A stretch of DNA of 63,187 nucleotides, the filler included, from Kipferlia bialata (taxonomy: Eukaryota), in the NCBI GenBank assembly GCA_003568945.1. It is 6 parts of 6 records of this genome, joined end to end, with 100 filler letters (N's around TTAATTAATTAA, not from the genome) between each part and the next. Parts side by side here need not be neighbours in the genome. Positions count along the whole stretch, not along the records: positions 13,118 to 26,106 come from BDIP01001000.1; 5 more parts are not named here. One strand, written 5' to 3'. The translations under genes and the position numbers were made by a program. The notes beneath the pieces are model-generated. The model saw nothing but the letters and a program-made list of their open reading frames with translations, was not told where the DNA came from and made no database searches. Shown here piece by piece: positions 2,650-45,520 of the stretch (position 1 is the first letter of the stretch; each line of letters starts with the position of its first letter).

Positions 2650-2695
<46 letters not shown>

Positions 2696-5203: not shown

Positions 5204-5234
<31 letters not shown>

Positions 5235-11672: not shown

Positions 11673-12136
11673 GATACAACGCTAGTAACACTGCACATAA
11701 CTACTAATATATCGCTTCTCCAACACGTCCTTTAGAGGCATCCTACTACCTATATCATAGAACTGGTTCATACAGGGGCTGTGTTTACTCTCTCAGTTAC
11801 AATGGGTGTCGTTTACTACATAGAGTAGGGTGCTAAACATTCTTCGTAGTGAATAGAAAATTCATTTTGTCTCCACCCTAAGTCTCTGTGAGATTATCAT
11901 TCCTTCAGCCAACAGAAAACCTGCCGACATACTGTTAGTTAAATAAGCAGTAATTATGATGTTGTGTGAAGTAGAGTTGATTGCATCGCATTGGAGCGTT
12001 TCAATCGGAGAATCGGACGACATTCGGAGAGTCCTCTAGGTCGATGCCTCACTCTCCCTCTTCAGACACAACCACCCCGAGTGAGAACTGTGCCAGACAT
12101 AGCCTATAGAGAGTAACTAACGAGTACTGATCCGCC

Positions 12137-13117: not shown

Positions 13118-13444
13118 CAGGGGAGTGGAAGAGGAGACGGGCTAGGCCCAGACGCTGCTTCTCTCCACCTGACGTTAGGAAGTACTAACCATATCACTCA
13201 AGATGTATAGTATATGTACGTAACCATAGGAATAGTATTAGTGTATGTATAAAGATAGAGTATGATACAGGATTTTTCTAGTAGTACCTGATAACATCTC
13301 GGCCCAGGGCTCCCTGGACTCCAGGGTGTAGGACTCAAGGAGGTAGTCCAGCTGACACACGTGGAGGACAGACTTGAACACATAGGCAGGGGTGCTCACG
13401 ACATCAGCTGGGGGTGAGAATGTATATATATACTATAGATACAT

Positions 13445-13479
<35 letters not shown>

Positions 13480-16400
13480 ATGCCTTGAACACATAGGCTG
13501 GGGTGCTCACGACGTCGACTTGGAGTTAGATCATATATATATACTACATATAGTATTAAAAGGGTATGCATATAGTATTCACAGTATAGGGGTATCACCA
13601 ACCTTCTGGCAGAGGGTAGCAGATCTGGCCCCTGAGGCTACCCCCATGCACCACGTAGGTGTGCTGGGGGACGAAGAAGACACCTAGATGTGAGAATATA
13701 CATATATATATATGGATAGATATATGCATGTACTTATAGGGAGAGAGGCTGTGTGCTGGGGGACGAAGACACCTGGTACCTAAATGGATACTCATAACGA
13801 TGTGTACAAGGTATATGCCAACATACAAAGAAGGAACAATACTAAACTCACCCTCGTTTCCGACGACTGTGGGCCTCTCAATGGTGCCTCTCTTGTGGTC
13901 CCAGAGACCTGGGGTGAGTGCATTCATATTCCCTTTATAATATCTGTAGAATATACACTAAGATACACTCTCTTGGGATCCCGAGGGTATACGTATCAAT
14001 TGACTATATGTGTCATGCCTGCAATGACCCTGAGGGTCGATGACTTGCCACACCCACTGGGCCCTGTGACCACCACTCCACCCTCACCACTGCCAACACG
14101 GAAGGACAGATCTCTAGGGGTTAGTGTATAGCGATATACATATAGTGTATATACACTCATACAGTATACAATTCCACCCTCACCACTCCCAACACGGAAG
14201 TATAGGTTCATAGGGTCGGGGTAAACCCATATAGTGCAACTAGTCCCAATTACATACATATATGTAAAGCCATATCCATATCATCATGAACTATTCATAT
14301 CAATATGCACCATTACCTGACGAGTGTCTCCTTGGCAGGGGACACGACATCAAGCTCCTGGACAGCAACCCTGAAGGGTGAGACATATGTAGTAATATAT
14401 ACATACACTGAGAGTGAGAGAGTAACATCCCTGATGGTAAGCAACCTTGGGGTGAGATATATTCAATATATGAGAGAAGCAACCAGACCGAAGAAGAAAC
14501 AAACAGGAAGAATGCGATACATGTGTCTTAGTCCATGCACGATATATACACATGTATATACATACATACCTGTCTGAGTCTATGCATGATGTCTCCAGTG
14601 GAGGCATGACCTCCAGCTGTTCATCCAGCTGGGAGACACGGTTGAGGGTACCGAAGAAGGCTGCGACCTTGAGGTTATGACACTTGCAATACATTTATCA
14701 CAATACATTGTTATGTAAGGAGTGTCAGGGTAATCATGCAGTCAATGACGGTTCCAAAGAAGGCAGATACCTGGAATTTACTATCATTATAGATATACAT
14801 CTATGTATATTCATAATAATAGATACAGTACCTGGGGTGCCAGCATGAGCAGACCTGTCAACACATTGACATTATACACTCATTATATATAATGAACTAT
14901 AGTATATAATTATACATATATGCATATACCTAGGTATATAGAATATATATAGATATAATACCTGTGGTGCCAGCATGAGGAGACCCGTCAGCGAGTGCAT
15001 CATGTTGTTAACCTCCTGGGGGTGAGGGAGAGGAAAACACCTGCTCGAGGAGAGTGAACTCGGAGGGATATTCAGCAATGAATATACCATTATCATCTAT
15101 ATATATAGAAAGAGGGAGAGAGAGACATGTGTACCTGCTCCAGCAGACTGAACTCGGAGGGGTCGATGGATGGGAACAGCCAGGAGACAATCATGAGCTG
15201 GGGTGAGATAGTATGAATAGATTGATAGATACACATGAAGATATATATACCTATACATGTATAGTTAAGTAGATAGTAGGTGACGGTGGGGTCGATGGTG
15301 GGGAACAGCTATGATACAATCATGAGCTGGGGTGAGAGGTATATGTATACAGATATATAACACAGAGAGAGAGAGTCATATATGAATATACATAGATATA
15401 TAGTATGTTATCTATTTGAGTCACATATAACGGCAGCGCATATAGGTAGCGCAGAACTGATAGATGGTGTATATCGATATTATTATATTACAATAATATA
15501 TATGGAATGAGAACGTACCGGCAGCACTGTGCACCCAAACTCTGCTTAAATACATATATAAATGACACATATAAGAATAGATAGAATATATAGTATTATC
15601 AGTGCTGACGTACCGGCAGCACTGTGCAGCCAAACTCTGCTGTCTTGCGTAGATGTGATAATCATAGAGTGTATTTACATTTATATACATAAAGTATATA
15701 CATATAGTAGTACATACCGGCAGCACAGTGCAGCCAAACTCTGCTGTGAAGTGGTTAAACCAGGATGCTCTGGCTGCGTGTCTGGCCAGGGAGATCTGGA
15801 TGTTAAGGGAGTAGTATTGATATAGAAATGAATTGCAACCTACTACAATGTATTACAATATATTACACTCTATTAATATATGCATAAACAACAAATAGGA
15901 TGCCCTGGCAGCGTGTCTGGCAAGGGAGATCTAGGGTGAGTGTGACTGAAATACAACAGAGAAGGGAGAACTATTATACCATGTCTGGCCAGGGAGATCT
16001 GGACGGTTACATGGGGTTAAACAGAAGTGTACCTATGTATGTATATTAGTCAATGACTACATTGAAAGTGTTTCAAAATCAATAGTAGTATTATAATAAA
16101 AATTCACAACCCCACGTGTCTGTCGAACAATGACCCCAGGGCAGTATCGGCAACTAAAATATATATGTATATATCATACTTGAATATACTCATCTATCTA
16201 TTTCCAATTCTATATCTATATATATGTGTGTGTATATGTATCAATGTGCAAACCTGTCTGTCGATCAATGGCCCCAGGGCAGCGTCGGCAAAGGACCCGG
16301 CCTCCTCCTCTCCCTGGGGTCAGAAGGGGTATAGTTACCATAATTAGAGCACTCTTGTAAAATGCAATGGACTCGCAGAACTATATCAATATTATAGAGT

Positions 16401-19400
16401 AATACAGTACCATACCTACAATGATAAATACAGTATCTACCAATCGACCATTACCTTGTAGAATGCGATGGACTCGCAGAACTCCCTGCTTCTGGAGTGG
16501 GTGTAACGCATGGCTCCCTCTGCCTCCTGAGAGGTCAGTACAGGGAACAATATAGAACCAAAACAACAATTAGATGTATCATAACTATCCTCACCTCAAC
16601 AGTCTAACCAATATGTAAAGAACATACTGACAATCACTTAACTATTCCACTCCTACCTGTAGCTTGTTTGTGATGGCTGGAATGGAACGGGTGGCGATGA
16701 CCTGATTGTCAGATTATATCATTGTGAACATAGACTCTCACACATACTTACAGAGGGAGATGCAGACCAATGATGTGTACCTGAATGAGCACGGACATGC
16801 CCAGGAACACCTAATGTGTACAAAAGCCCTCTATATATGGAGAAAGAGAAAAAGAGAGTACAAATATACCAGAGAATAATACCTGGATGAGCACGAACAG
16901 TCCAAGGAACACCCAAGGCACCACCTGGAGTCTCCAGTCTGCACCCTTAATGTCAGTAACATATATAGTACTTAACTATACCGAAATGTACCAATTACCA
17001 ATGCGTCCTACAGGGTGAGCGTCAATGACAGTCTACAAGTCACCAAATAATTGACGTAATCAAAACTGTCGTCTACTATACTCCATTACTTACTACTTAG
17101 GACTCTCTCCATACCTCAGTGTTGAAGAAACTGTAGCTGATGATCAGACAGTTGATGACGGTGAACCACAGGCCCTGGAGTAAGTATAACAATAGGATCT
17201 CAACTATATACTGTACATTGAATGTATTGGAATTATCTCAGTTGATGACGGTGAACCACAGGCCCTGGGAGTGAGAAGGAAACAAATGAATGTACCATAT
17301 GCAATGTCACAATACCCTAAAAATACCATGACTGTATATATACATATATCCATATCTATACATACATGTCTTACCTTAGTCACGGGCACTATGCCCTGTA
17401 CCGATGGCACAACACAACATAGTACTATATATTTACTGGAATATATAAACATTGGAATATATACATATATATACATACATACTGACCTTAGTCATGAGCA
17501 CTATGCCCTGTACTGATGGCACGATACTGCCAAAGAGGGAGTTGCCAGCCACCCTTGGGTCAGATCTCATATATATATATACATATATAGAGAGAGAAAG
17601 AGAGAGAGCGAGAGTTGCATTGATACTGCCAAAGAGGGAGTTGCCAGCCACCCTGGGGTAAGATAGATCCCATATGAATATATATATATATATATGCAAA
17701 GACAGAGAAATAGAGAGAAGGATAGAGAGTTGCCAGCCCTGGGGTGAGACTCCATACTATTATATGTTGTTACATATATATAGAGAGAGAGAGTTGCATT
17801 GATACTGCCAAAGAGGGAGTTGCCAGCCACCCTAGGGTAAGGATCCACACCCACACACACACACATATATGTATATACATATATATATATATATTGAGAG
17901 AGTGAGAGGGAGAGGGAGTTGGCAGCCACTCTATGGTTAGATCCGATAGAAGCATGTAAATAGAAATACATAGAGAGAGAGAGAGAAAGTGAGAGCTAAT
18001 GTTAGGACCAATGAGACAAATGAGAGAGAGTTGGAGCCACTTGCAGCATAGAGCTGACATCATTGGGATATATACCTAGCGTCTGCACTGATTCTCTGTC
18101 AAGATCTAACAGTCCCATATATAGATATATATATATATAGATGGAAGCACAGTAGTAAAGTATATAATATAATGTAGTTAGTACCTTGCGTCTGCACTGA
18201 TTCTCTGGTCTGGGGCATCGATGCCTGTGGTAAGTACAATGGAGAGACAACATATCAAAACCTTCATTATGTATCTATAAACTATGTAATACATGGAAGG
18301 TTTAGATATTGTAAGAGCACGCAGTCGTGTAACACATGCAATTATATATAATTGAATATATATACACACATATATATACATACCTTGCACTGTCGTTGCC
18401 ACTCTGTAGTAGTTTCAACATCCATAGCAAAGCATATATACACTACTGTACCCGTGTTCAATCTTCAACATAAACACCTATATATGTATCAAGGTATATG
18501 GTTATACCTTGCACTGTGGTTGCCACTCTGTAGTAGTTCCACCATCCATAGCATTGTATATTTGGCAAATATATATAGGATAGAGAATATACTGTCAGAG
18601 TACCCTGTCTCCTAGTATATATTATATATGTTTATTTGTGTATATACCTTGCACTGTTGTTGCCACTCTGTAGTAGTTCCTCTCCGCAAAGTACTTCTTG
18701 TGCAGGTTCTTGGTCAGCCTCTCTCTGAGGGTGAGTGTGATATATACAACCCCCATTCTATAAATAATATTCTTCATAATATATACTTCAATAAATATAG
18801 AGGTATTGTATGTATAGCTGTGTCATTACCTGCTGAAGTTGTTTGTGGTGTATGCTGTAATGTCACAGAGCATTGAGACAATACACACCATGCCAAGTGC
18901 TATAAGGAGGGAGATGGTGTCGGAGGTGGACTTGGTGGTGTCGGGGACGGCTGGGGTGTTAGAGTGTACTATATATGTATAGAAAATATACTATGTGTAT
19001 AGTACTCTATTTGACAGTCTGAGCGTTGGATTAGGTGGTGTCGGAGACGGGTGGGCATAGACTGAGGCTCCATACACACCAGAGAGTATTAGCGTCAGTA
19101 ACGCAACAATAAGTAGTTCACTTATAGTACTGATACACGAGACTGTACCTTCTCCTGCCTGGCACGTGACATCTCCAATGATGTTTGATATCCAGTACTG
19201 ACAGTTCAGGGTGACCTGGGGTGTAAGACTCAATAATAGATACAGTACATACATTATCATATATATATTTAAATATATATATATATAACAAATAACAATG
19301 TGTGTGTCATATCTATCCTATCGAACAATACCTTGGGTAGCACTGCTGTGATGATCAGTGACAGTATGCAGTAGACAGACGGTGCAGACAGGGCATGGCC

Positions 19401-22400
19401 AAAGGCACCATGGAGATAGCGCCCCAGGGACTTGATGGGGGAGGGAGGGGGGACAGCTGGGGGGCGGGTGTCAGTGGCAGCCTGGAGTCGGAGTTTGTAT
19501 TTATATATATTTATATATATATTTATATATATATATATGTGTATATATATACATGTATGAATATGTATTGATATGTATATATGGAGGGGGGACAGCTGGG
19601 GGGCGGGTGTCAGTGGCAGCCTGTAGTCAATATTGGTATACCATCAAAGACTAAAGGATGACCAATGAAGAAGTATTGTTGGGATCTGATGTTCAAGTGG
19701 AAGGCTGGAGTCATAGTATACCCAATATACACCAACTATGCTATAGTATCTGAGTGCAGATAGTCCATACCTTGGGGGGCAGGGGCTCTGGGTACACCTT
19801 CCTGGCCACAATCTAGGGTAAGAGGGTGATAGTGTAAGTGTGATATAGTGTCCCACTCAATGACACCGACTAGTAAGGGTATTCATGTCCACACTATACT
19901 CATGTTCTCCCATACCTCGCTACTGGGCGGTGTATAGATGGGGTTGTGCTGCAGGTACAGCTCTGAGGTGAGACAGTTATATACTCGACTATACCTGAAG
20001 AGGGATACATTCTTCTGATGAAGATATACGCAAATCTAGAGTGTACCTGAACTCTAGACCCTGGGTATATGAATAATCATGATATAGGCAATATGAACAC
20101 ACACCTGAGCTCTCGACCCTGTGAGTGTATCTGTCACTGAGGACAAGGACAAGCTGGGGGTAAGCTGGCAAGCACACAAACAAATACCGGATACCCAGTA
20201 ATAACCAGGTGTCAGTGTGTTGATATTCTGCATATTCGTACAACGCAGGTACACGTATAGTACCTGGTGGAATGGAGTGACTGTCCTTATAATATCATAT
20301 ACTTGACCAATCTAGCTAGTATACAGTAATAGTATATGTATACGTGTGTGTGTGTACCTGGTGGAATGGGATGACTGTCCGTCTGTGTGCCACAGACACC
20401 ATGGTGATGCCCCTGGAGACACACTCAGACAGGATGCTAGGGGTAAGAGTACACTATTCATATACTAATAGACAGAGAGAGGGAGGGAGACATGTTACAG
20501 ACACCATGGTGATACCCCTGGAGACACACTCGGACAGAATGCTGAGAGTGAGACATTCATATTCATATATATATATATATATATATACAGCGGGAGGGAG
20601 TGTAACATACTTAGTAAAGAGTCACATACAAATACATATACAGCCTATCCCCCTACCTCTCCTCCAGGTCCACTGGCAGGGCAGCTGTAGACTCATCCAT
20701 CACTGCGAAGGAAGGGGAGTGGAAGAGGAGACGGGCAAGGCCTAGACGCTGCTTCTCTCCGCCTACAGATAAGACTATAAATGTAGCAATGTACCCACTA
20801 GTTATAGCTATTTAAAGAAAACATTGGAAACATATATATATGTATATTAGTATACTAATTACTAGTACCTGACAGGATCTCTCCCCAGGCAGCAGCATCG
20901 GTGAGGTCGAACCTGGCAGTTAGGGTGATATTGACAAATTGCATATAGGACATAATATACATATAATAGGATAGTATATACCTGAAAGTTAGGACTATAC
21001 TGGGAGAGGTGCTGAAGTAGAAAGACTAGTATAACAGATATTCATGTAATCATACTTATATATAGTATATACCTCTCCAGCAGGTAGTCCAGCTGACACA
21101 CCCACAGTACACACTAGACATAGTATATATATGAGTCGTCTATATAGTATACATAGTATATATTATATACATAGTACATACCTCTCCAGCAGGTAGTCGA
21201 GCTGGCACACCCTGAGTGCCTCGAGGACTCTCTCTCTCTCCTCCTCCCTCTCTGTGTCACCGTATGTCGATGGGCCACCCTCTACCCCGTGGGCATCAAC
21301 GTAAGTATCACCAAGGGGATCCTCATCAACATGCTGATGTGAGTATATGGGAGGTGTAACTACACTATAGTGATGTATACAAGACATGGGCATCAGCATA
21401 GGTGTCATTGAGGGGGTCCTCTACAAGGGTCTGGTGTCATATAGCGGTTATCATACACGTGTGTATATACATATAGATGTAACTATATTCGTTAAGGTTT
21501 ACCTCTCTCTCAGCTGTGGGTGTTGCTGGGTATGTGACCTCCCCCCAGAGTGAGGAACAAGTATACATACACATACATTGATAAAGAATACACATCAAAT
21601 ATGAGTGCACCCACCTCTCTCTCAGCTGTTGGTGTTGCTGGGTACGTGACCTCCCCCCAGAGTGAGGTGTGGGTGAGGTAGGGGGTCTGGGGCACGAACA
21701 AGGTATCAGCAGGCAGAGAGACATGACCTGAAAGCATTAGACATCTATTGAGAGCATAAGCATATTAGCAATCAATATCAATATACATGTATGTATCTCT
21801 CTCTCTATATATAGCACACTGTACCTGATGACACTGGCCACAGACCGGCCAGACACCTGAGCAGAGAGCTCTTGCCTAGGAGTGAGAGGCATACGACGAT
21901 TCAATCTGTGTATTACGAGTATATATCTATACATACCTATGCCACTAGGTCCCATGATGACCATGCTCTGACCCTTGGGTACAGAGGCAGTCACACCGGT
22001 TAGGATCTCACGACCCTAGGGTAAGATACATAATCTAACGTCTGGACAACCAACCCATATTTGGCTCTGGACACCCTGAGTAGAATCAGCATCATTACTG
22101 AGTAGGCATATATATGTGTGTGTGCGAAGATAGAGGTGCCTCACTCCTGGAGTTGCAGTAGAGAGAGAGGCCCTGTCTATACAGACTACATATAGAGATA
22201 TATTGAGACTCTCCTCCTGGTGTGGCTACGGACAAGAGAGTCTAGCAGCGGCCTCGTCAGAGTGTGTATATACTATATGTACTGTGTATGTACAATATAT
22301 ATACGATGTAGATATGTATATACATAACTCACCCCAGGAGTAGCTATAGACACCCCGTGCCACCCCAACTCAGTGTCGTCATAACAGTACACATATATTC

Positions 22401-25400
22401 ATTATGTATATACATATATAGATATTACGTACTCCTGGTGTTGCAATAGATACTCCATGCCACCCCAGCTCAGTGTCGTCACATATATAGTATATATATA
22501 CTATATATAGTGTGTAAACATACAGCACGTACCCCAGGAGTGGCTAGAGATACCCCGTGCCAGCCTAGCTCTGTGTCGTCAGATGCCTCAGCCTCATGGG
22601 CATCGGCAGTCACGAAGTAGTCTCCATCTCTCTCTCTCTCTCTCTCAGTCTCTGTCTCAGTCTCACTCTCTGTCTCTCTGTCACCCATGAAACCAAGCTC
22701 AGTCCCAATGGATCCAACACGCCTAGGATAAGTAGAATACCATCATTCATACTACAAGTATATACTGTACATATATACTGTACTATTCATACCTAGTGAG
22801 ACCAACAGCCGTGGCTACACATAAGGCCAGCAGTATAAAATATACTAGAGGTATATATCTCTAAACACAATATACCTAGTGAGACCCACCGCTGTGGCTA
22901 TGCTGGGACCCAGACCAATGACCCAAGTGACACCCACAAGGAGCTGGGATTAGTAACTATAAGTAATGTATATATATATGTATACTAGAGAAAAGGAATG
23001 GTATATATATGCACATATATATACTAAATATATGTATACGTATATGATGTATTGAAATAGTGAACTAGGACCCAAGTGACACCAACGAGGAGCTGGGATC
23101 AGTTACAATTATATATATATACACATATATATATACTAGAGAAAGGGAATGGTATATATATGCACATATATATACTTAATATATGTATTAGTATATAAGC
23201 GTTGTGTTATAGTGACCCAGGACCCAAGTGACACCCACTAGGAGCTGGGGTCAGCTACAATATGATTGTGGAACGCTATATTATATAAATATATATATAT
23301 ACATATAAATATATGCATATATCATATATATACTATACATCATCCCTCCATGGACATCCTGACTGTCATGATGGCTGTGTCACCACATGATGGTATATCT
23401 ATACATACCTATCTATATATAGACTATAGACATACTATTCTCTCTCTCTCTCTCAATATATATATATCCTATATACACTATACATCTCACCTCCATGGAC
23501 ATCCTGACCGTCATGATGGCTGTGTCAATGTCCCTCAGTATAGAGAATAGATATACTATTCTCTCTCTCTCTCTCTCAATATATATATATATAGTATATA
23601 TAAACACACCTCCATTGACATTCTGACTGTCATGATGGCTGTGTCACTGGACAGACACTCTTCAGAGTTCAGGACCTAAGTGTAAGGTATATATATATAG
23701 AGAGAGATTTGTATGTTTACATGCATACCTGGTAGAGCAGGAACGAGTAGGGCAGGGCATATATATATATATACATAAGATATGATGAATCAAACACTAA
23801 ACAGATACTAGACCTATTGTTCATATAAATCCATACCTGGTAGAGCAGGAATGAGTAGGGCAGGGCAGCGGCAGCCACGATGTTGACAAACTGGAGTCAG
23901 GATAGGAATAGATATTCCTATGGAAATTTACAGTAGAGCTCTTGTAATATCTCTGTCAAAACATAATAAACAATTATCTACATATACCTCATTCAGCTCT
24001 CGATGTTGAAAAACTGGGGTAAGCGAGGATACGGTAGATACTGTAAAACACACTCCTTTCGATACTGATACTGATACTGATACTCACAACATATTAAACC
24101 ACTATCTACATATACCTCATTCAGCTTTGGCAGAATCCTCCTCCACACCAGCCTGTGACTGTTGGCAATGACAGCCTCCAGCTGCTTGTCGGCAACGGCT
24201 CTTTCGTGCTAGGGGTGAGGTGTATACATTATGGTATATATTTATATATATATATGTCTAGATATACTATCATGATATACAATATGGCAATGACAGCCTC
24301 CAGCTGCTTGTCGGCAACGGCTCTCTCATGCTATTGGTTAGACAGCTATATAGAGGTAAGACATGTATATACTATCATCATATACAATATGGCAATGACA
24401 GCCTCCAGCTGCTTGTCGGCAACGGCTCTTTCATGCTAGGGGTGATATTTATACATTATGGTATATATATATATATATATATGTGTGTGTCTAGATATAC
24501 TATCATAATATATAATATGGCAATGACGGCCTCCAGCTGCTTGTCGGCCACGGCTCTTTCATGCTAGGGGTGAGATCTATGTTAACTATCTGCGGCACAT
24601 ATTTTCATATATATATATATATATAAACTATGTGGTCTCCAGCTGCTTGTCGGCAACGGCCCTCTCGTCCTACGGGTAAGATATGTATATAGGTAACATT
24701 ACGACCACTGAGCCACATACAAAGAGAGAGAGAGAGAGAGAGAGAGAGATCAAACTGCTTGTCGGCAACGGCCCGCTCGTCCAAGAGGTGAGATTTAGAA
24801 AGCTATATAAATACAACGATGGGAACTAGTAAGAGAGAGAGGAGACAGAGAGAGAGAGAGAGAGAGGTACCTCGTCTCCGCTGAAGAATGCAATGGCCTC
24901 TGCTCCCTCTCTCACAGCTACATGGTGGTATCTGGAATAAGGGTGTAGAGAGAGAGAGAGAGAGAGAATTCAACAACCCTCTCTCACAGCAACATGGTGG
25001 TATCTGGGATAAGGATGTGGTGGGAGAGAGAGGTATATATATCCATTGCAGATGCTCACAATTGAACTGTTAACTGGAATAAGGGTGTAGAAGTGGAGAG
25101 AGAGAGAGAGAGAGAGAGATGGATCTACCTGAGCTGTCCCTCGAGTCTCTCCTACTCTGTCTTGTGTATAATGTTATATATATAATGTTACATATATATG
25201 AACGTGTACATGTCATGTATCTCTATATGAATATGTCTACCTGAGCTGTCCCTCGAGTCTCTCCTGCTCTGCAACAGGTATATATATACAAACTCATATA
25301 TGGATATGTTTATGTACATATTGATATATATACACTATACATTGATATATATACCTGAGCTGTCCCTCGAGTCTCTCCTGCTCTGCGACAGGTGCCACTA

Positions 25401-26020
25401 GGGGCTGGTTGAGGATCTGAGGGTCAGTGATATATATATATACTTATATATGTATATGACATATATACAAAGGGGGCTGGTGGAGGATCTGAGGGTAAGT
25501 GATGTATACATACTATTACTATATAGTACTATCCACAATGATATTCAATATAACACACCTTAGTCAAGACCAGCTGCACCAGGACGTATCCCACAATACA
25601 TATTAACTCTATAATAGTAATATATATATACATATATATATATAAGTACTATACAATATGTATAATACTTGATCACCACTGATGATACATGCCTTAGTCA
25701 AGACCAGCTGCACCAGGACGTATCCCACAATGCTCCATATAAACATATGTAATCATAGATACTATACATGTTGTACTATATATATCATATAATAGCCAGT
25801 GTATAACTTACAATACATGCCTTGGTGAGGACCAGCTGCACCAGGACGTATCCCACAATGCTCCAACTCATATAGTATATGAGTCATATACATGTATACA
25901 CCATTACTATATAGTATCATATAATATGACATACCTTTGTCAAGACTATCTGCACCAGCACGTATCCCACTATGCACCACAGTTGCCAGGCCGGGATACC
26001 CACATGGAGGACGGCAATGG
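13118..26020 (-). CDS. Full-size ABC transporter, subfamily D (TMD-NBD-TMD-NBD); partial at both ends
   Basis: EAA motif 1 EQERLEGQLRYHHVAVREGAEAIAFFSGDE (~24870-25400). NBD1: Walker A GPSGIGKSS, FVPQTPY, signature LSGGEKQRLGLARLLFHSP, Walker B AVMDESTAAL, SVAHR. Continuous linker exons. TMD2: APDQRISAD and EAEGAMRYTHSRSREFCESIAFYKG. NBD2: GPSGCGKSS, FFVPQHTY, LSGGEKQRLGLARLLFHSP. Confidence 0.92.
22141..22580 (-). repeat. 3' half-exon echo array in ABCD gene (DDTELGWHGVSLATPG)
   Basis: Live segment 22533-22580; echoes 22433-22480 and 22333-22380; degenerate copies at ~22215 and ~22145. Confidence 0.9.
24116..24781 (-). repeat. 5' half-exon echo array in ABCD gene (HERAVADKQLEAVIA)
   Basis: Live exon 24116-24208; echoes 24286-24330, 24391-24435, 24519-24563, 24637-24669, 24755-24781. 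Confidence 0.9.
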
Positions 26021-26057
26021 CTGTATATAAGAGGAAGGGAGACATATACATGTATAC

Positions 26058-26106
<49 letters not shown>

Positions 26107-26235: not shown

Positions 26236-29200
26236 GACACCCTCTATGACATGCACATGGCCCTTGGCGTGTCAGTGCTCAGGAGCATGCAGGTCACGCA
26301 GGTATCATTATATATATGTATATTAATACACAAGGTGTAAGGTGTGATACATACATATCACGCATGTATGATATATATATTGCAATATATATACCCTTAT
26401 AGATACCCATGCACATGTGAGTGTCAGTGCTCAGGAGCATGCAGGTCAGTATGATCCATAAACGTGGTGTATGTCGTGTTCTAACTCATTTTGTGTATAT
26501 CCTATAGTTCCTTTTGAGTTTCTGGTATACTTACCCCTCCAGGTCACTGTCGTTGTGTGTCAGCTCTGGCGGTCCCTGCCCCAGCTGAGGTGTCACTACC
26601 TCAGGTATGCATGGGTCAATATATACCTCAATTCTATATTGAATACTGACTCAATTATGGTACGTTGCATGCTTCACTGATGCTGATACTGATACTGATA
26701 CTACCTCAGGTATGCAAGGGTCAATATACATCTGCTCTGATGTGGATTTTCTTCAATGTCTATACTGATACCAATATGATGATTTGCGTATTCTCTCTGT
26801 TTAGATACCCCTCTCATATTTATTTCGTTATATATATATATATATATATATATGATTGTATATACCCCTCTCATTGTCAGGTCTGTCAGGCACCGCAGGC
26901 AGGAGCCAGTGGATATGCACTGTGCCCACTCCATCTTTGGATACGGGGCACTGGAGGGAGAAGTAGTGAGAGAGGCATCTGTCAGGTATGGAGTATAGTG
27001 AATATAGTACAGAGTGTATAGTAATGGTGATATGCACATGTGGCATACAATCTCTTACATCTAGGTCCCAGTGCAATGCCCAGTTCTCTGAAGCTACACA
27101 GACGCATATATATACATGTATAGCTAGAGTAATATACATGCTATTTCATTAACAACCAGATCCCAGTGCAATGCCCAGTTCTCTGATGCACTCAAGCTGG
27201 ACATGGCAGGGTTGAAGGCTATTCCAAGGTGTGTACATATACATATATATAGTTATGTATATAAGTATGTGTGTATATGCACTCAAGCTGGACATTGCTG
27301 GGCTCAAGGCTATTCCAAGGTAAGAATCAGTATCAGTATTCCTATCTTTATTGCATCTCTATTTCTGGACATCGTAGAAACCTAGAAAATATAGAAGTCT
27401 AACTTCCTAGGAACGGTGCCTTTGAGTGTCTGACTGTGGCAGGCAGTGCAGCGGGGAGGGAGGGCGCAATGCAGGTATACACACTATATCTATATTTATA
27501 TATCTGTCTATATATAGTGTGTATATATAGAATATCATATCATATATATAAAGAGAGAGGGGGAGAGAGAGAGATTATCTGTATCTGTGTTGTCAGTGCA
27601 GCTGGCAGGGAATGCGCAATGCAGGTATTCATACATACACAACCATACGTATATGTATAGCGTAGTATTTCATTGTGCAGTATGATATATGAAGCTGGGA
27701 CACAAGCTATTTCTCCAAGTGTCTCCATCCCTCCCCCCCCCTCCATTTCCCCTTTTAGAAAGGTATGTGTCATTCTATGTCGTCTCACCCTTAGGAGCAG
27801 CTCCTGTCCCTGCGTCCCTCCAGTGGATACACACACAGTGTGGCAGTGGACGTGTCATTCAGACACACACAGGTATAGAGTGTGTATACATATCCATTCA
27901 TATAGGTTCTATACTGAAGTGTCCATCCTAACCCCAGACCACCCTGGGTGCCGAGGAGATCCTCTGCCAGATACTGGAGCACCCCATACTCAGGTACGCA
28001 ATAACATATTTACATGTCAATCTTTACATGTCAATTGTTGTGAATTGAGTACCCCGCTTGCTTGGCTTTCACTCTGTCTCACAGTATAGTTGCATAAGTT
28101 CATTGGTATATCATTTAGTATATCAACGATTATTGCTTAGATTGCTTTCACTGCTCTCACCCCTTCAGAATGGCAGTCCGCATGAGATACATGAACGACG
28201 CCTCGAGGCGCTTTGCAATCAAGGTATCTGTCTACCAATGTACAATTGTAATGAAATGCACTAGGCAACATTTGTGTTTCCTATTGCCACTATTCTAATG
28301 GTATTGAGTTATATTTGGTTATTGGATTAGTAGCAATGCCCTAACCCGTTAGGATAGCCATCTCCCCACCTACGAGTATGCCTATGACTATGGCCCCCTG
28401 GACCAGCTGCTGAGGACGATGAAGCACATCGAGTATGCAGTCATGTACATACCCAAGCAGGTATACTAATATACAGTGTATATGTAGTGTATAGTATGTA
28501 TATACATACATAGAGAGAGAGAGACCATGAAACACATCGAGTATGCAGTCATGTACATACCCAAGCAGGTAGTGGTATAGATAATGATTATTTTACACTT
28601 ACACATGTGTAAATGTATATTCCTTCGGATTGTGCTTCCCAGCAGCATTTCCTTGTGCATATCGAAATGGATGTCTACTTCTATACCATGTGCGAATGCG
28701 CCCTTGCTCACTCTAGATCGTTGCCCCCAGCGGTATCTCCCTCGTCCATGTCATCAGACTGGGCTGCAGATGGACAGAGGGGGAGAGAGACCTCTCAGAG
28801 GAGCAGGAGAGACTGGCTGAGAGCACCGCCCTTGCTAACCCACACTACAGTGCTAGTATGTCCCCCACTACCACTTCTAGAGAGACCATGGGTGATACTA
28901 GAGAGAGGTCCTACATGATATCCAACGAGACCTCCCACCCCATACCATCCCCCACCAGAGGGGGTAGGGCAATGACTAGAGACCTGTCTGCATCGATGCT
29001 CAGCACAGCACCTGCCCCATCTCAGGTGTGTATATGTATGTGTGTATATATAAATATATATGATACATTGTGTTTATTATACATTATATATATAGTATGT
29101 CTGCATCGATGCTAAGTGCAGCACCGGCACCTGCACAGGTATGTATATATATATATATATATGTATATATAGTATATATAGTATATACGTATATGTCTTC

Positions 29201-32200
29201 ATCGATGCTAAGTGCAGCACCTCATGTATGAATATATGTGTGTATATATGGTGCAGTGTGGTGATATTTGTGATGCATACTTCTCACTCTAGGCCGGCAT
29301 GGAGAGAGAGAGAGAGATGTCCGTTGGTGCCGAACAGCGTGGTGTCTCTGTGGTGCGTCGGAGAGTGCCCCCCTCCCACTCTAGGTAATCTCAAATACTA
29401 CTCACAATACTATATAATTGTTTATATTCTTATGTAATTATGAAATCTTAGAATATACTCCCACTCTAGGACACCCCTTGCCCCGTACACACCCCTACCC
29501 ACACCTGAATCCTTAAATACTATATAAAATACTATAGTATTATATGTAATCTAATGAACCACTCCCACTCTAGGACACCCCTTGCCCAGTACACACCCCT
29601 GCCCACACCTGACCTGGCTCAGATCAGTGGAGGGGCTGAGACACAAGTATGTATTATTTATATCTATCTATATATATTTATATATATTATATCAGTTCTT
29701 TGGAGGGGCTGATACAGGTAGGTATCCCTTTTCCGTTGGATAATTATTGCATGTATTCCACACTTTTGTATATGCATATATCTTTGTGTAGAAGGTTAGT
29801 TACTGACCCCCCAGGGCGATGCCCAGTACGGTGACCTATCCACCAGTGGCCTAGGTGGTAAGGATAGGGAGAGAGAGAGAGGAACATCCCCACATGCAGG
29901 GGGGTCCCCTCTCTCATCCTCCAGCCGTCTCGACCGTTCAGACCGTCTGGACCGTTCTGGCCTCTCCCCTACCCTGGCTGGCTCAGACTCCTCTATATCA
30001 GGGTCTCTGAGACTGGAGACACTACTCAAGGGACTGGGACTCTCTATCACGGCAACAAGGTGCGGTATCGCAGTATATACGACGTAGAAAACATTTGTAT
30101 CGAGTATGCTTATGATTCTCTTCTCTAATTTTTAGGCTCCAGACCCCCCCTCGCTCTGTGTCTCTGTCGGTGCTGCACAGGCAGAGGGTGTCACTCAGTC
30201 TGCAGGTGATTATTGTTATATATATGTGAATTATATATACACATGTATGAATATACAAACTATGGATATATACATGTGTGTGTCTCTGTCTGTCCTTCAT
30301 AGACAGAGGGTGTCCCTGAGCTTACAGGTGTGGACTCATACGTATTGTTATACATTTTTGTCTATGTGCGCATATGAGTACTATATACTATCCTTAAGGC
30401 AGAGGTTTTCCTTGAGCGTCCAGATAGTATAATAATAACCAATCAGATGTATTCGGGTATTATTTGGAGACATTTATCAGTAATATAGTAAAGTTCCCTT
30501 ACCTCTAGGACCAGCTCCTAGCCCTTGTGTGTCTCAGTCCTATATACACATCATATTATATATATATATATATATGTATGTGTGTGGGTGGGTGTATTTC
30601 CATGTCTTACGCCTAGGATCAGTTACTGGCCCGTGCCCTTGTGTGTCTCAGTCCTGTAGCAGTCATACTACACATTAATACACATGTAACAGTATATATA
30701 TATCGGTGTCCTTAACAACAGGATCAGCTCCTGGCCCGTGCCCTCCTCTGTCTGAGGCACAGCCAGGCACAGACCGGACAGGGGTACAGAGACATGTTCA
30801 ATGCATTCTATGCTAGGTATGACTCTATGTATATAATTATCTTTTAGGTGTATGACATACGGGTGTATGTATATACAGTATGTAGTCGAGTACATACAAA
30901 GCAGGCTACTATATTTCTGTAACGACCTTTACGAGTACATACATATTTGTATATATGTCTAACCCCTAGGCACCGCGATTGCCAGATGATCCCAAGAGTA
31001 TATGAATATGTATATAGATAGTATATGTATATATATATATATAAATATAGTATATGTATATATAGTATGTTCTATTCATGTATATTGTGGATATGTCTGA
31101 CTGCTAGGCACCGTGATGGCCAGGTGATCCCAAGTGGTGTGTCACCCATACCCACCCTGGCACTCAGGTATGAATGTGTATATATATATATATACGCATA
31201 TGGGTAATTCATTTTAATATTCATTAGAGAAATCAATCACTGATTGTCTCACCCCCAGGTCCTCCTAGACCCAGCCCAGACATAACTTTGGATATTTCCC
31301 TCCACTATTCCTCTATGTTGGTGTATGTCTCTACAGCATGTGCATCTCACCCCCAGGTCCTCCTATCCCAGCCCAGACAGACTCGCCCACCTGCAGAGGG
31401 AGAAGGTACATGATATGGCAATGTATTCGTATTTGAATGTATTGTTTACATTTCGCATCTCACAATCAGATCTTTGAGACCCCTATCTTAACTCTTACAT
31501 GCATATATAATTATATATACTCACATTTAGATCTTTGATACCCTGGACGTCAACCTCGACTACGAGCACCCCTACGCCGAGACGTCCAGCCCCACCCCCG
31601 CACCCCTGTCCCTCACTCCATTCCTCTCAATGCTGTGTGACAAGTATGCACTGTCACCCACATCCACACTCGCACAGTCACCGGCCGGGGTGTCACCCTC
31701 CAAGGTATGTATGTATGTGTATATGTATTTAGTTATACAAATTTGTATATATATATATACCCAATAATGTATAGTTGTCTCTTTGTCCTAACCCCCAGGC
31801 TGACTGTGGTATTGAGGTACACAGTGTATCATAGATACATGTATAGTGTAATATAGCTATATGTTATCATACTATGCATGCTATGCCTGACCCCAGGCTG
31901 ACTGTGGAATTGAGGTCCTGACTCGCCCTGCATCAGGGGCATTCCACCAGGTACAGATCCTGATAGATATATACTAATGTGCAAAGAAATACTATTGTAT
32001 ATTAATATATATAGAGAGAGAGTGATATATATATTTCTATACATTCCTCAGGGACATTCCACCAGCTGGGGTCATTATGCATCCCTCATATATGACCATA
32101 TCTATCCTATGCTATATATGTGTCCCAAATGTAGTATATATATATATTGAGAGACAGGATTCATATCCTCTAACCCCAGGTCAAGGCTGGTGTTGCCACC

Positions 32201-33824
32201 CTCCTGTCTACCCTGTACACACACCCAGAGGCACTTGTCTTTGTAGGTATGGTACACTTAATGATTCCTGTCTATCCCAATCCCAATAGCAATAGCAAGA
32301 CCTGGGTATGCTTACACACTGTATCATTGTATAAGTATTGCACTACGAGGCTGTGACATACAATTTATACCATTACTCATGCGTAAAATTCATGATTATT
32401 ATGTAAATGCAATATTGTTACATGATGTCTCACCCCAGGCCAGGGCCTAGACAGTGACTCTGCAATATTTACCAATATACATACTCTTGTTATATGACTG
32501 CAGTACATATATGTATATCTTGTTGTATACCCACTCCCCCCAGGCCAGGGCCTAGACTCCGAGTCATCCTCCCGCCCCCTCCTAGCCTCCATCCTTGTAC
32601 ATACCTTGCTGGCCCCTGCACCCTCTCTGTCCCTGTGCCAGTCATCGGCACTGCTCAACCAGAGCCACATACAGACACAGGTATATAGATATATATTTAT
32701 ATAAATTGTATGTTACCGCAAGATAGCTTATGTTGTTAAATATTTATGATAATTGTGGATAACATAGTGAAACCGCACTGATATCCAGGCCCAGTCCCCC
32801 TCACTGCCCCCAGTTGCCTTCTCCGCCACCCCCCTATCTCGCGTTGTGGCACTGACCATCTACATGCACTTTAAGGCAACGCAGGAGAGAGTGGCAGAGA
32901 GAGCACAGAGAGAGAGAGAGGACATCGTGGGCAGGTCCTGGCTAGACTGTCTACTAGGTGCATTGACAGAGAGTGACACATGTCTGGAGTGGGGCAGGGA
33001 AGTACTATCCACCTCTGTGTCCACCTTGGTTGAGTGGAGCAGACTGGGGTACGACCTACACGTTGAGCTCAACTCTCCACACGGTGTGGAGGCTGCCTGT
33101 GACAGGCTGGGTGACCTGTTGGCAGTGTTCACGGCATGCATATCAGAGTGTGTGACTAGCTGTCCACCCATGATCAGAGACACGCTCAGGTATATATATA
33201 TATATATATATGAATGAGTACACCATATATTCTGTATACTAAATATATGCTATATATATGTATTGTTGGTATCAAGGCCACGCTGTCCACCCATGATCAG
33301 AGACACGCTCAGGTATATGTATAGGCTTACACATTCTCTCTCTCTCTGTGTTACACTTTCTATCTCTATATTTATCCATTCATATATATATCGCTTCATA
33401 TCTGATTCTTAGGCACATGCGCACCTGGTACACAATCTCTCTCTCTCTCTCTCTTACTGACTCTCTTACAGTCAGACACATGCGCACCTGTGCCGGTGCC
33501 AACAATACCCAGGACCTCTCCTTTGCCAGACTGGTGGTGCATGCCCTGCTCAAGAAGTGTCTGAACCACCCTGTTGGGAGTGGTCTTGTATCCTACGAGA
33601 CAGGTATGCATATAAATATAAGTAGACAGATGTATATATACAATACTTACACTAGGACATGATGCACATGCCAGTGTCTTGTACTCCAACCTCTCCCTCC
33701 TTGGTGATATACTATGTATACTATATACACACACACATATATATATATATATAGTACTTACAATAGGCCATGACAGCCACGACAGTGTTCTGTACTCCAA
33801 CCTGTCTCTCCTTGGTGATATACC

Positions 33825-33866
<42 letters not shown>

Positions 33867-34349
33867 GTACTTACACTAGGCCACGACAGTGTTCTGTACT
33901 CCAACCTCTCTCTCCTTGCTGATGTACTATAGACACTATATATATATAATACGTACACTTACTTACCCTAGGTCATGACAGCCATGCCAACGTGCTGTAC
34001 TCCAACCTGTCTCTCCTGGCTGATGTCATTGAGACATGTGCATACCCAGACGGCAGTGTCATGTCACCCCTGCAGATGGGAGGGAGAGTGGCCAGTTGGG
34101 TCTACAAGATGAGGTAATGCACACTATACATCTATTACATGTATTCGTCTACTATTCATCATCTTACCGCTAGGGAGACCCTCACCTCTGTCCGTGCCAA
34201 CTCCCTATCAGTGGTTGCACAGCAGCTGGCAGACGGAGGCTCCCTCCTGACACCCCTGCCCATACCATACCCTCTGCCACAGAGTGTGGAGGGAGGGGTG
34301 GATAGAGAGCTACTCTCAGTGGCCCCCGTGGCAGGTATAGAGTACTATA

Positions 34350-34386
<37 letters not shown>

Positions 34387-34542
34387 GGAGGAGTGGACAG
34401 GGAGTTACTCTCTGTCGCACCAGTGGCAGGTATTATTCTTGCATAATTAGTTAGTTCACTCATGTATATTTATACATTTGGGTATATAACTCACCCCAAG
34501 CACTGTGATCCCGTGTTCCTCTGACATTGTTGACTGTCCCAT

Positions 34543-34581
<39 letters not shown>

Positions 34582-36934
34582 ACACCCTAGGTACTGTCAT
34601 CCCCTGCTCGTCTGACATTGTTGACTGTCTGGCCTCTCTCATACACGTCCAGATGCCCAGAATCACAAGGGGGTACCAGGTACACATACGAATACTACAT
34701 GTATTGTATACATCTTCATATACATATTCATATATGTGTTTGTGTGTCGTAGTGAGTATATATCTAACCCCCCAGTCCCTACACATTGATGATGGCCTGC
34801 AGTGCCCATCTCTCTCTCTCTATCTCTCTCTCTATATATATACATTCCTATTCATTAGTATACACCTTACCCCCAGTCCCTGCACATGGATGGTGGTCTG
34901 CAGTGCCTGGCCAGTGACAGCCATGTCTACAAGGAGACACAGGTGTGTTATACTATATTATATTATGGTATATATATGACAGACTAGAAATATGTATATA
35001 TGAATAGTGCTTATGTAGATGGAGTAACAGTCATGTCTACAAGCACACACAGGTATAGATTATTATATAATAGTATACATTTGAATGATATGTATGAAAT
35101 ATGTAATCTATTCCCACCATGAAGTCATACTGAGTGTGTTCCAATGTGTATTATTGTATATAAAGACGTAAGCTCACACATCAGACCTGCCTGGTCCATT
35201 GTCTGCCAGCTGTCTACAACTATACTATTATATACGTATATGTAAATGTTTCATATTCCTATTCCTAATATAGCTTCTCTCACCCCTCAGACCTCCCTGG
35301 TGCATGGTCTGCCAGCTGCTATACTAAATATAGTACTCTACACATTGGCGTATATATTGAGTGTACATATACACTATAGGCTTCCTGTCTATCTCACCCC
35401 TCAGACCTCGCTGGTGCATGGTCTGCCAGCTGTCAAGGCAGCGCTCAAGGGGGTGACCCCATTCACAAGGTACTTGTATATGTGTTAGACGGCGAGTGGA
35501 ATGTGCCAAGAATATTTTAGTACTATTTATACCTTCTCTAGTCTCTAAAGTCTAACCCTTAGATCCAAGGACAATGTGCTCTTCACAAGGTTCAGTGATG
35601 TGTATATATATAACTCATATATTCGTAGAAAGATATGTGTATGATATACGTTATCCTCTTAAGATTCACCCCCAGGCCCAGGGACAACGTGCTCTTCACA
35701 GCGTCTGTGTACAGGGACAGTGCAGGTGTGTGGATTAGAGTCAATACAAGGCATTCATTGCATGTATTAGTAGTGTTATACTCATTCCCACCTCTGCCTT
35801 TGCCACTGTGCTGAGGCATAAGTACTGATATACCTATATGTGTATATATGTAACCATGCAGTATCCCCACCTCTCACTGTGACAGAGACTAAATTGAATT
35901 ATTTGTTATTGCAATTATCTGTTGTGTTATAGATAGTCCATGGATACTTATATTTCCAAATTGATAGCTGTTCCCACCTGACGCTGTGCAGAGGCACAGG
36001 GTGGATGCATATGTATATTTATATACTCAAGTACTCATGCGTAAAGTCAATATCTCTAACCATGCAGGTGTTCCTACTAGTGCCTTTGACGCTGTCCAGA
36101 GACACAGGGTGGATGCTGACCCAGTCACAGCCCATGTCAACGAGGCAATACTGGACAGGTATGTGTATGTATAAATGTATGTGTGTATCCTATCATTGTA
36201 TATGTCTCATATCAGCTATGCCCTTGTGCAGAGTGGTGTCAGGATGGACAGTGTATATATATACATATATATATATTTATATATATATATAATACTGTAT
36301 ATACTCATCCCAGCTATGCCCTTGTGCAGAGTGGTGTCAGGATGGACAGGGACAGGGTGGACAGACACGTGTTCCAGAGGTATGGTGTATCATATATATA
36401 TATAGTTATACATAACACTTCCATAGTAAATCTGGATAGTATAATGTATATATATAATCATTGGTATGGACAGGGACAGGGTGGACAGGCATGTGAGTAT
36501 GGGAGTCATTTTAGAGAGAAACATTCTGGAGTATCATCTTGAAAGAAGTATGATATCTTGAGATAACAGAAATCAAAGTTTCTAATAATTGGTGTATCTT
36601 CTCACCCCAGGGCTGGTGAGTTCAGCCAGGGATACAGTGACCCCGTTGCTCGCACAAGGTATGGATGGTGGTGTCTCTCCAGCATTGTCTTGTGTGTGTA
36701 TATATATATACATAGGGATATCTCACATAGGGAGACTGTGGCCCTTTCCCATGCTCTCGCTCTCCATCTTTCTTAGATACGTTTCTCTTGTATATGAATC
36801 TATATCTATCTGACCCCAGGGAGGTTGTGACCCTTCTCCAGACCGAGTCCTCCAACATTGTGTACAGGACATACATCAGTGCACTGTACACAGAGCTGGA
36901 GGGATGTTTGGCAACAGCAATCCAGGTATAGTTC

Positions 36935-36968
<34 letters not shown>

Positions 36969-37656
36969 CGCATATATTAAATACACATGTATATATATAC
37001 ATCAGATCAGTGCTATTCAGGTTTGTATATAAATGGGTATATACCATTGCTCTATTTGATTATAGGTGTAAGTCAGTGTATTAGTGGTTCTTATGTATTA
37101 GTATACGTATAAGTATGTGTTACTATAAACATAGTCTTACCCCCAGGCCACCAACAGCACCACCGAGCAGTACCATATATATACTAATTATACATAATTG
37201 TACTTGTATTAATTATTATATAAATGTAAAATGTGTGTATTACACGCATGATTCTCACCTTAGGCCACCAACAGGCATAAGGATGTGTTATTATGTACAT
37301 GTTCTTACACTCAGAGTACCAACAGCACCAACGAGCAGTACCAGCGCTACCTAGCCCCATCCGGCACAGAGAGCACTGGGAGAGGGAGAGTGGGGGATAG
37401 TACCCCTAGGTCCCCCCTGCCTGCGCCCTTCTCCCCCCAGGCCCTGCCCATAGTGCCCATAGTGCCCATAGTGCCCATAGTGCCTATAGTACCCATAGTG
37501 CCTATAGTACCCATGGTATCATCCCCACCTGTGTCTGCACACCCTGCTGTGACACCACCCCTGTCCAGACCCTCAAAGCTGAGGTATATACATGTATACA
37601 TATATATATATGCTTACTTATATACTCAAAGCTCAGGTATTGTATATATTGCTATG

Positions 37657-37688
<32 letters not shown>

Positions 37689-38372
37689 TTATAGTATTCA
37701 TGTATATATACACCCTGCCGTGACACCACCACTGTCCAGACCCTCAAAGCTAAGGTGTATAGTATATCTACTAAACAAATATATATATGGAGTGATAAGC
37801 ATTGTGTTCCCTATTAATTGGCTCTCATACCCAGGTTTGTGACCGATGAGAGTGGGTTTGTGGTGAGTAAGGGTCCAAGGGAGGCTGGGGCAGTGACCCC
37901 ACCCACCCCAGACGGGTACTACACTGAGGTATGGATATATGTATACGGCATAGACATGTATTGTTAATATATATATTCATGTATATCACACCAACCCCAG
38001 GACCAGCCCGACCTGCCCCTCCAGTCAGCTGCCCTTGCCAACCCACCCACACCCACTGTGTCTGGTACATCTAGTACCTACAGTGCCTATAACACCACTG
38101 GTACCACTGGTATGGGTAGGAGTAGACTGGCAGTGTCGTGGAGCAGTGCTAAGCAGCCAGAGCCAGTGAGGGAGAGGCAGCCCGAGAGGAGTGGGCGCCC
38201 TGTTGTGTCCTGGAGCAAGGCACCCTCCCAGGCTGAGCTAGAGAGAGAGAGAGAGCAGAGAGAGCAGAGGGAGGCTGCCGCTAGAGCCCCCTCCCACACA
38301 CCCTCCCCTGTCGATGGAGGGACGCAGTTCTACTCACTCCTGCAGTCATTCAGGTCCAGACAGGGACAATAG
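26236..38372 (+). CDS. Large multi-exon protein with a divergent RasGAP-like domain, possible RasGAP_C-like segment and Pro/Ser-rich tail; 5'-partial
   Basis: More than 30 phase-compatible exons ending ...LLQSFRSRQGQ* (TAG 38370-38372). The segment GREVLSTSVSTLV...VELNS...SCPPMIRDTLRHMRTCAG...LVVHALLKKCLNHPVGSGLV...SNLSLLADVIETCA follows the order of RasGAP helices; ...NEQYQRYL recalls RasGAP_C. The gene is well supported; the domain call is an inference. Confidence 0.6.
33656..34030 (+). repeat. 5' half-exon echo array in RasGAP-like gene (GHDSHANVLYSNLSLLAD)
   Basis: Echoes start at 33656, 33767 and 33880; live exon starts at 33972. Confidence 0.9.
37446..37513 (+). repeat. 9-bp coding tandem repeat (GCCCATAGT-like) encoding (PIV)x7
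   Basis: Direct reading: LPIVPIVPIVPIVPIVPIVPIVPMV. Confidence 0.9.

Positions 38373-45486: not shown

Positions 45487-45520
<34 letters not shown>

Follow-up and report, generated by a model that had tools for sequence, protein, structure and literature searches.

Most introns in three genes of Kipferlia bialata contain copies of one end of an adjoining exon together with its splice site, here called echoes. The echoes are dead now but diverged under coding constraint: an echo and its live exon look like two sequences that both stayed in use while about 0.2 silent substitutions per site built up between them, one of them then being retired for a further 0.04 or so. The arrays that the echoes form are polarised in erosion, yet they are not a chain of snapshots. 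All positions refer to the window, the whole stretch of DNA that was analysed (63,187 nucleotides, filler included, from assembly GCA_003568945.1).

Results

Genes in the window

A 42-residue piece of the window led to the K. bialata protein KIPB_004621, with 100% identity over 83% of the query. The record bearing this protein has 12,989 nt and corresponds to window positions 13118-26106, between two gaps. The 953 residues were mapped letter for letter, in spliced form, onto 38 exons and 37 GT-AG introns of the minus strand. No public protein was found for gene A or for gene C, and both are models from a small gene finder that, as a control, recovered 36 of the 38 transporter exons. The three genes are as follows:

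259..8712, plus strand: gene A, predicted model of a charged low-complexity protein, 21 exons; 31 echoes, including the arrays at 3073-3351 and 4894-5410
13119..26020, minus strand: gene B, ABC transporter KIPB_004621 with ABC_membrane_2 and ABC_tran domains; 38 mapped exons and one predicted upstream exon; 50 echoes
26236..38353, plus strand: gene C, 36 exons in a predicted chain that may hold more than one gene; 27 echoes, among them those at 30280-30423

The transporter gene (13119-25416, minus strand) is internally doubled, with membrane and ATPase parts present twice per chain, and within it 13119-13170 (52 nt) is 94% identical to 20713-20764. The paralogue KIPB_007633 is likewise internally doubled, and the Dysnectes protein has one set. 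The public model appears to shorten the exon at 14113-14088 (minus strand) and to lack a Walker A stretch present in the paralogue, and the sequence from 14082 to 14010 looks coding.

Five copies upstream of one transporter exon

The focal live exon (24208-24116) encodes what we take to be the EAA-loop region of an ABC_membrane_2 transporter. The encoded peptide gives a gap-free alignment with two Kipferlia paralogues and one Dysnectes protein, and His comes first in all four. The 662-nt intron upstream of it contains five copies of the acceptor and exon start (46, 46, 46, 33 and 27 nt), separated by TA/GA-rich spacers of 59-89 nt; the start-to-start spacing, from the live exon outward to the fifth copy, is 122, 105, 128, 106 and 112. 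One junction sequence is common to E1-E3. The features of this locus, in order of transcription, are as follows:

24871..24931, minus strand: upstream exon, joined directly to the live exon in RNA (protein mapping and RNA contig)
24209..24870, minus strand: host intron, 662 nt, GT-AG, taken out in one piece in assembled RNA
24755..24781, minus strand: echo 5 (E5), 27 nt, GAC GAG CGG; H>D and three silent differences, TG replacing AG
24637..24669, minus strand: echo 4 (E4), 33 nt, GAC GAG AGG; H>D and two silent differences, AG intact
24518..24563, minus strand: echo 3 (E3), 46 nt, CAT GAA AGA GCC GTG; three silent differences, AG intact
24390..24435, minus strand: echo 2 (E2), 46 nt, CAT GAA AGA; one silent difference, AG intact (sequence comparison)
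24285..24330, minus strand: echo 1 (E1), 46 nt, CAT GAG AGA; two silent differences, AG and branch-point-like motif intact
24116..24208, minus strand: live exon of 93 nt, both ends in phase 0 (spliced mapping of KIPB_004621 and RNA contig of X2)
23956..23998, minus strand: donor-side echo of the same live exon, comprising its last 11 nt, GT and flank
23837..23890, minus strand: downstream exon (protein mapping and RNA contig)

The codons, lengths and intact or lost AGs given for these copies in a preliminary description of the window were borne out, except that the three nearest copies are 46 nt long rather than 45, and a sequence check agreed that Arg is kept as AGA, AGG or CGG. The copy nearest to the live exon in sequence, in exon part and in flank (flank score 24/30), is E2. 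The acceptor flank of E1 is unlike that of the live exon (2/30), and E1 has GAG in common with E4 and E5. Two of the three silent differences of E3 are private to it. Counted over the length of each copy, mismatches to the live exon are 2, 1, 3, 3 and 4 for E1-E5; over the shared 27 nt they are 2, 1, 2, 3 and 4 (rho 0.82 against rank, p = 0.09), while copy length decreases with rank (46, 46, 46, 33, 27; rho −0.89, p = 0.04). The focal gradient is thus real at the far end (E4-E5), but E1 is out of order.

The GAC GAG of E4 and E5 is also the sequence of the last two codons of the upstream exon. Intron sliding was set aside as its source, since this needs a two-residue deletion that is absent in all four homologues. 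The gene finder also scored E2 and a further 17 nt as a weak in-frame 63-nt exon (score 1.6), which is not in the RNA contig.

Splicing and genomic reality of the focal array

Run X2, classed as RNA from its behaviour on comparison with the window, was compared over 24100-24945, that is, one array and one contig, and contigs lose rare isoforms. The X2 contig (depth 16) spans 24116-24210 with zero differences and continues at its loose ends into the upstream exon on one side and the downstream exon on the other, indicating that all five focal copies are skipped. A low-depth (2.3) X2 contig over spacer S2 (24341-24402), which jumps back at a 6-nt repeat, is probably a chimera or unspliced RNA.

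DNA unitigs of run X1, possibly the sample from which the window came, bridge the live exon, S1 and E1, then E1, S2 and E2, and also E3 to E4, with depths of 389-410 compared with 419 for unique sequence. The shared cores have depths of 850, 855 and 1305, equivalent to 2, 2 and 3 copies. Bridging of junctions at single-copy depth, together with cores that scale with copy number, indicates that the focal array is genomic; the bridging is without cover over 24622-24945, and no single piece spans the whole array. Over the covered part of 24100-24945, the X1 contigs contained no other letters that would reveal a second allele.

Echoes in the three genes

An anchored scan of 96 exons gave 135 matches at a threshold of 11, which was reached by 1 of 768 null trials; in an earlier null, where the threshold was 13, the best exon score against unrelated introns was 11 in 228 trials. 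Acceptor halves upstream of their exon or donor halves downstream of it made up 123 of the 135 matches, a pattern explained by tandem duplication of roughly 110 nt with one end in the exon and the other in the intron. The remaining 12 comprise 10 matches in gene A, which is of low complexity, and 2 that seem to stem from mis-set boundaries. Before counting, 15 of the 123 echoes (8 of the 81 arrays and 5 rows of a ninth) were dropped as cross-matches, a minisatellite or mis-set boundaries. The retained set comprises 108 echoes in 73 arrays, with a median period of 108 nt. Five further echoes with evident indel misalignment were left out of the triplet, stop, pS/pN and CpG counts (n = 103), and the amino-acid site count left out one array and one echo.

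At least one echo is present in 57 of the 93 introns. Each echo adds 90-112 nt, echo units make up 11,936 of the 24,516 intron bases in the three genes (49%), and variation in intron length is mostly accounted for by echoes (r = 0.96, 0.93 and 0.74). The AG or GT/GC is intact in 99 of the 108 echoes, and a branch-point-like motif accompanies 44 of the 55 acceptor echoes, compared with 106 of 1190 other intronic AGs. A same-offset GT..AG pair is found in only 11 of the 108. The largest echo covers 73% of its exon, and there is no full-length duplicate among the 108. Several junctions fall in TA/GA/CT-rich runs, the microhomology being judged by eye. Two donor-side arrays of the transporter gene bear on the tests below:

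22141..22484, minus strand: array of exon 22722-22533, with two long copies and two short decayed remnants
25559..25865, minus strand: three echoes of exon 26020-25935, which keep Ser and Leu where the live exon has Cys and Ile

The Ser and Leu of the latter are the states in the paralogue and in Dysnectes.

More echoes were seen in two uncounted genes, at 59023-59681 (minus strand) and 9280-9640 (plus strand). The MORN-repeat gene at 9981-11700 (plus strand) has long exons and zero echoes. An echo-free block extends from 40001 to 56000, where a nearby copy was found at 0 of 51 acceptor-like sites compared with 45 of 143 in 1-40000; this block is GC-rich (0.48-0.54) and has few TATATA runs. 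By region, echoes accompany TA-rich introns, and both may follow recombination rate. The donor-side echoes at 1845-2110 (plus strand) of exon 1652-1734 carry an internal acceptor-like site, and two of them are readable as in-frame 27-nt microexons; likewise, the donor-side echo at 16810-16781 (minus strand) is closely preceded by an AG, and the gene finder scores it as a possible 30-nt exon in frame. Two short minisatellites, coding or nearly so, are present at 8299-8531 (15-nt units) and 37440-37515 (9-nt units), both on the plus strand. Live acceptors of genes A-C have a YTNAY motif at most 14 nt from the AG in 90 of 96 cases, a pattern resembling the fusion of branch point and 3′ splice site that the available text of PMC6679479 reports in diplomonads.

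Silent excess and present-day decay

Unique differences between echoes and their live exons were mostly silent (199 of 305, 65%), with 60, 42 and 203 at the three codon positions and silent shares of 47/78, 83/121 and 69/106 in the three genes. The share of differing sites is 22% among four-fold sites and 4.1% among non-degenerate ones. If a copy were dead from birth, it would gather its own random changes in addition to the silent changes of the live exon, which sets a ceiling of 39-47% silent. Simulation of such copies through the same alignment rule gave silent shares of 0.39-0.43, with a maximum of 0.51 in 180 runs. A simulation of capture, in which each lineage diverged by 0.1 under constraint and decay was set to 0.035, gave a silent share of 0.68, pS of 0.25 and pN of 0.037, beside observed values of about 0.66, 0.25-0.26 and 0.039-0.040. 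Even the 47 of 103 echoes that have zero replacements and an intact signal still have a pS of 0.20.

Several other sources of the silent excess were considered and rejected. CpG or transition bias does not produce it, as non-CpG transversions are 68 silent to 48 replacement; by mutation class, one of the four, CpG transversions (12 to 10), is not significant. Alignment trimming is rejected by the simulated maximum just given. There is no shift in GC3 (565 compared with 539 of 828), no clustering of replacements at the junction end (p = 0.17), and no better preservation of junction-side than of splice-side flanks (p = 0.33).

Stops account for 7 of 103 replacement differences, compared with 4.8% expected without selection; this lack of depletion indicates that the echoes are dead now. 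Splice dinucleotides have been lost at about 4% per site, like the present decay of the copies. Intron flanks of echoes score a median of 8 and 3.75 of 40 against the live flank, where 34 is expected at 8% divergence and 18 at 27%, and only 1 of 73 rank-1 flanks scores at least 30/40. Across echoes, pS and pN are weakly correlated (rho 0.25, p = 0.01).

Order within the arrays

The preliminary description read the arrays as ordered records of past exon versions, with new units added next to the live exon. That echoes are former working exon versions is upheld by the silent share and by four amino-acid sites that match the paralogue and not the live exon; among 31 changed residues, the echo agrees with the paralogue at 4, the live exon at 21 and neither at 2, with no data for 4. 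The proposed shortening with distance is also seen: the nearer copy is longer in 16 adjacent pairs, shorter in 3 and tied in 16 (p = 0.004), and clear remnants without a splice end sit beyond intact copies.

Identity to the live exon, in contrast, does not fall with rank as had been proposed. Among adjacent pairs in the 22 arrays with several copies, mismatches are fewer in the nearer copy 15 times and more numerous 12 times, with 8 ties (p = 0.70). When weaker remnants were added, some of them cross-matches, the result was 21 to 17 with 10 ties, and 14 to 7 for the first and last copies (p = 0.19). These tests ran on the three genes in the window, with a scan threshold that censors the most decayed remnants. 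A gradient had also been described at 22141-22580, 3073-3351 and 30280-30423; by eye the last remnants there are indeed shorter and more decayed, but in the array at 22141-22580 the second copy (7 mismatches in 49) is closer to the live exon than the nearest one (12 in 52).

Triplets of live exon, near copy and far copy gave 31 live-unique, 46 near-unique (32 of these changes private to the near copy being silent), 41 far-unique and 8 all-different sites. These star-like relations, the flat identity against rank and the fact that E2, not E1, is closest to the focal live exon do not sustain a chronological chain. Nor is the distal H>D an ancestral state by the proposed comparison with homologues: all four that were aligned have His, including that of Dysnectes.

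Discussion

From the observed structure and silent excess we infer a mechanism of capture, which we consider moderately probable: the echoes would be half-exons from diverged alleles (or homeologues), caught by unequal exchange or aborted repair between homologues. For versions that diverged separately while in use, other alleles or homeologues are the simplest source. Each echo would be half an exon with its own splice site, set head-to-tail in the neighbouring intron; its sequence would once have worked on a diverged allele (or homeologue), and homologues exchanging out of register would have placed it next to the copy that is now live. The homologue would serve as template for the repair of a break, or be joined to the broken end. 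Either step would overshoot into non-matching intron, ending at a short TA/GA/CT microhomology, and the resident half-exon would be retired and pushed outward. Later rounds would strike the live exon again or involve an echo together with a live exon, while retired copies would erode from their ends and by deletion. This outward push and erosion would make array position roughly track the time since retirement, in length and loss of the splice end, whereas silent differences would reveal which allele was caught, not when. Splicing likely tolerates the echoes because an acceptor and a donor lie close to each other at the live exon alone, as exon definition or proximal scanning would require.

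Published excerpts supply some background to capture. Metamonads are described as being without NHEJ, and fornicates as having lost Rad51A and carrying two Dmc1 paralogues (PMC8516963). In mouse meiosis, end joining between chromatids and homologues after double cuts gives tandem duplications and haplotype switches, a route demonstrated there that proceeds via aborted gap repair; the mouse events are rare, occur at hotspots and come mostly from Atm-null germ cells (10.1101/2020.06.23.168138). In fornicates such a route would be hypothetical.

Several observations count against capture. The allelic divergence it implies, about 0.2 at silent sites, is very high, and no second allele or strain was seen. 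Breakpoints are shared within 2 nt by 16 of 35 adjacent echo pairs, so capture would require that breakpoints be used again or that copies be copied secondarily. Among sibling copies the junction-side flanks have diverged (median 7.5/25) with exon parts still close, which fits long conservation as well as capture. E2 and the flank beside it resemble a copy of the live exon made recently within the same lineage, and the weak pS-pN correlation is what a time-based model predicts. The case also leans partly on the predicted models for genes A and C. A search for a relative in metagenome contigs gave 0 matches, and none of 68 pattern hits was confirmed.

The echoes might instead be old duplicates under continuing purifying selection, through occasional use in mRNA or through gene conversion or repeat collapse that swaps echoes into the live exon so often that damage to an echo carries a cost; we judge this rather unlikely. 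Star-like relations, a pN/pS of about 0.16, saturated flanks and retained splice signals would all be expected of such duplicates, and replacements are slightly more conservative than random (mean BLOSUM 0.06 compared with −0.45, p = 0.0006). However, stops are not depleted (7/103), the RNA contig uses only the live exon, and swapping in is opposed by the scarcity of same-offset GT..AG pairs (11/108). Repeat collapse is not common, since DNA depth over the spacers is near unique depth, and we reason that swapping back often enough for selection to act would erase the 25% silent divergence unless diversity were already extreme. Selection could also have acted earlier, on whole exons that were duplicated, long used as mutually exclusive exons and later truncated. 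This would explain both the constrained divergence and the saturated flanks, but it is very improbable: full-length duplicates number 0 of 108, though a state with both copies live should last longest, and random truncation should also have left remnants of the opposite geometry, of which there are none but cross-matches of low complexity.

A strict chronological record, made by same-chromatid tandem duplications that were dead from birth and added one by one beside the live exon, would account for the geometry, the length gradient (16:3), the four sites where echoes retain the ancestral amino acid, the gradient seen at E4-E5 of the focal array and the closeness of E2 to the live exon. This model is nevertheless largely refuted here, and we regard it as improbable. 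It predicts no more than 39-47% silent differences where 65% were seen, few near-unique silent sites (about 8, by hand estimate) where 32 were seen, and flanks ~92% identical where 1 of 73 rank-1 flanks reached 30/40, and there is no trend of identity with rank. Joining of haplotypes or strains in tandem during assembly is a concern with a short-read assembly of N50 about 10 kb from a culture enriched by gradient centrifugation, as the available text of PMC5874029 and PMC8516963 describes. Such an artefact is extremely unlikely: separately built unitigs cross the junctions at single-copy depth, with cores scaling 2x and 3x, 94% of sampled words of 19300-26040 are present in X1, and there are six distinct versions at one exon.

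Comparison with known systems

These comparisons refer to excerpts of the cited papers. Human F7 intron 7 contains a 37-bp VNTR with silent 5′ pseudo-splice sites (Borensztajn et al. 2006, PMC1557585). There, as in Kipferlia, a border-spanning first unit leaves functional-looking but unused intronic sites, and the exon-proximal site wins. The border-spanning head-to-tail unit recurs here in 123 of 135 matches, as do intact but unused splice sites (99 of 108 intact, with skipping in RNA seen for the focal array only); homogeneous minisatellite units decaying neutrally from birth do not, the spacers being largely unrelated and 65% of differences silent. Whereas F7 is one locus with near-identical donor repeats, Kipferlia echoes occur on acceptor and donor sides, in 57 of 93 introns, with unrelated spacers, and their divergence, unlike that of the F7 repeats, is shaped by coding constraint.

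Internal gene duplication, or intron gain by the Rogers model, also involves a short tandem duplication over an intron-exon border (PMC4974935, citing Gao and Lynch 2009), and a potato case of intron gain by tandem duplication copies the acceptor and part of the exon, as here (PMC4974935). Such cases create a new intron or exon (PMC4974935), whereas the assembled Kipferlia RNA skips the copies and the intron only lengthens, by ~100 nt per copy: the 662-nt focal intron is removed whole, and a GT..AG pair accompanies 11 of 108 echoes. The full-length copies with acceptor and donor that characterise mutually exclusive duplicated exons were not found either, the largest copy being 73% of its exon.

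Heterogeneous duplications put two alleles in tandem on one chromosome (Milesi et al. 2017, PMC6121789), as we propose here, and the echoes do differ from live exons in the manner of coding-constrained alleles (pS 0.25, pN 0.039). In those duplications, however, whole genes are functional and selected (PMC6121789), whereas the Kipferlia pieces of ~110 nt are retired at once, being half-exons with stops among 7 of 103 replacements, and retirement appears to recur at most splice junctions. Direct repeats near splice sites are, as here, close to intron borders (Rogers and Bendich 2025, PMC11782384); they measure 4-30 bp, pair the two intron ends and are read as insertion scars, and they are not half-exon arrays (PMC11782384). 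The echoes belong to a known class, internal tandem duplication, and work like the F7 pseudo-sites, but they create no new intron, and neutral decay from birth fails to describe them.

Implications

A full-text literature search found no account of half-exon echoes in Kipferlia, and the keyword passages and section 12 of the Kipferlia genome paper make no mention of such repeats. Duplicates that span a junction have been known as curiosities of single loci; in these three genes they are found in 57 of 93 introns, make up 49% of the intron DNA and are thus a direct, visible source of intron sequence. Since the silent bias is impossible for copies dead since birth, it points either to extreme allelic divergence with homologue-templated misrepair or to unrecognised selection on intronic half-exons, and either would surprise specialists in protist genome evolution.

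We put forward, tentatively and as somewhat less probable than capture itself, the wider proposal that in Kipferlia, which has neither NHEJ nor Rad51A, half-exons and their splice sites are routinely retired into the neighbouring intron when highly diverged homologues are used for repair. This would be the main route by which TA-rich introns grow, and most splice junctions would come to store exon ends of other alleles, as in an archive. If this is true, a population sample would be readable from one isolate, and the genome would hold tens of thousands of natural experiments on a reduced spliceosome ignoring intact splice sites. The arrays make splice-site choice testable in a lineage that combines a reduced spliceosome, with 87 of 174 proteins according to the available text of PMC6679479, and an intron-rich genome, with 124,912 introns according to that of PMC5874029.
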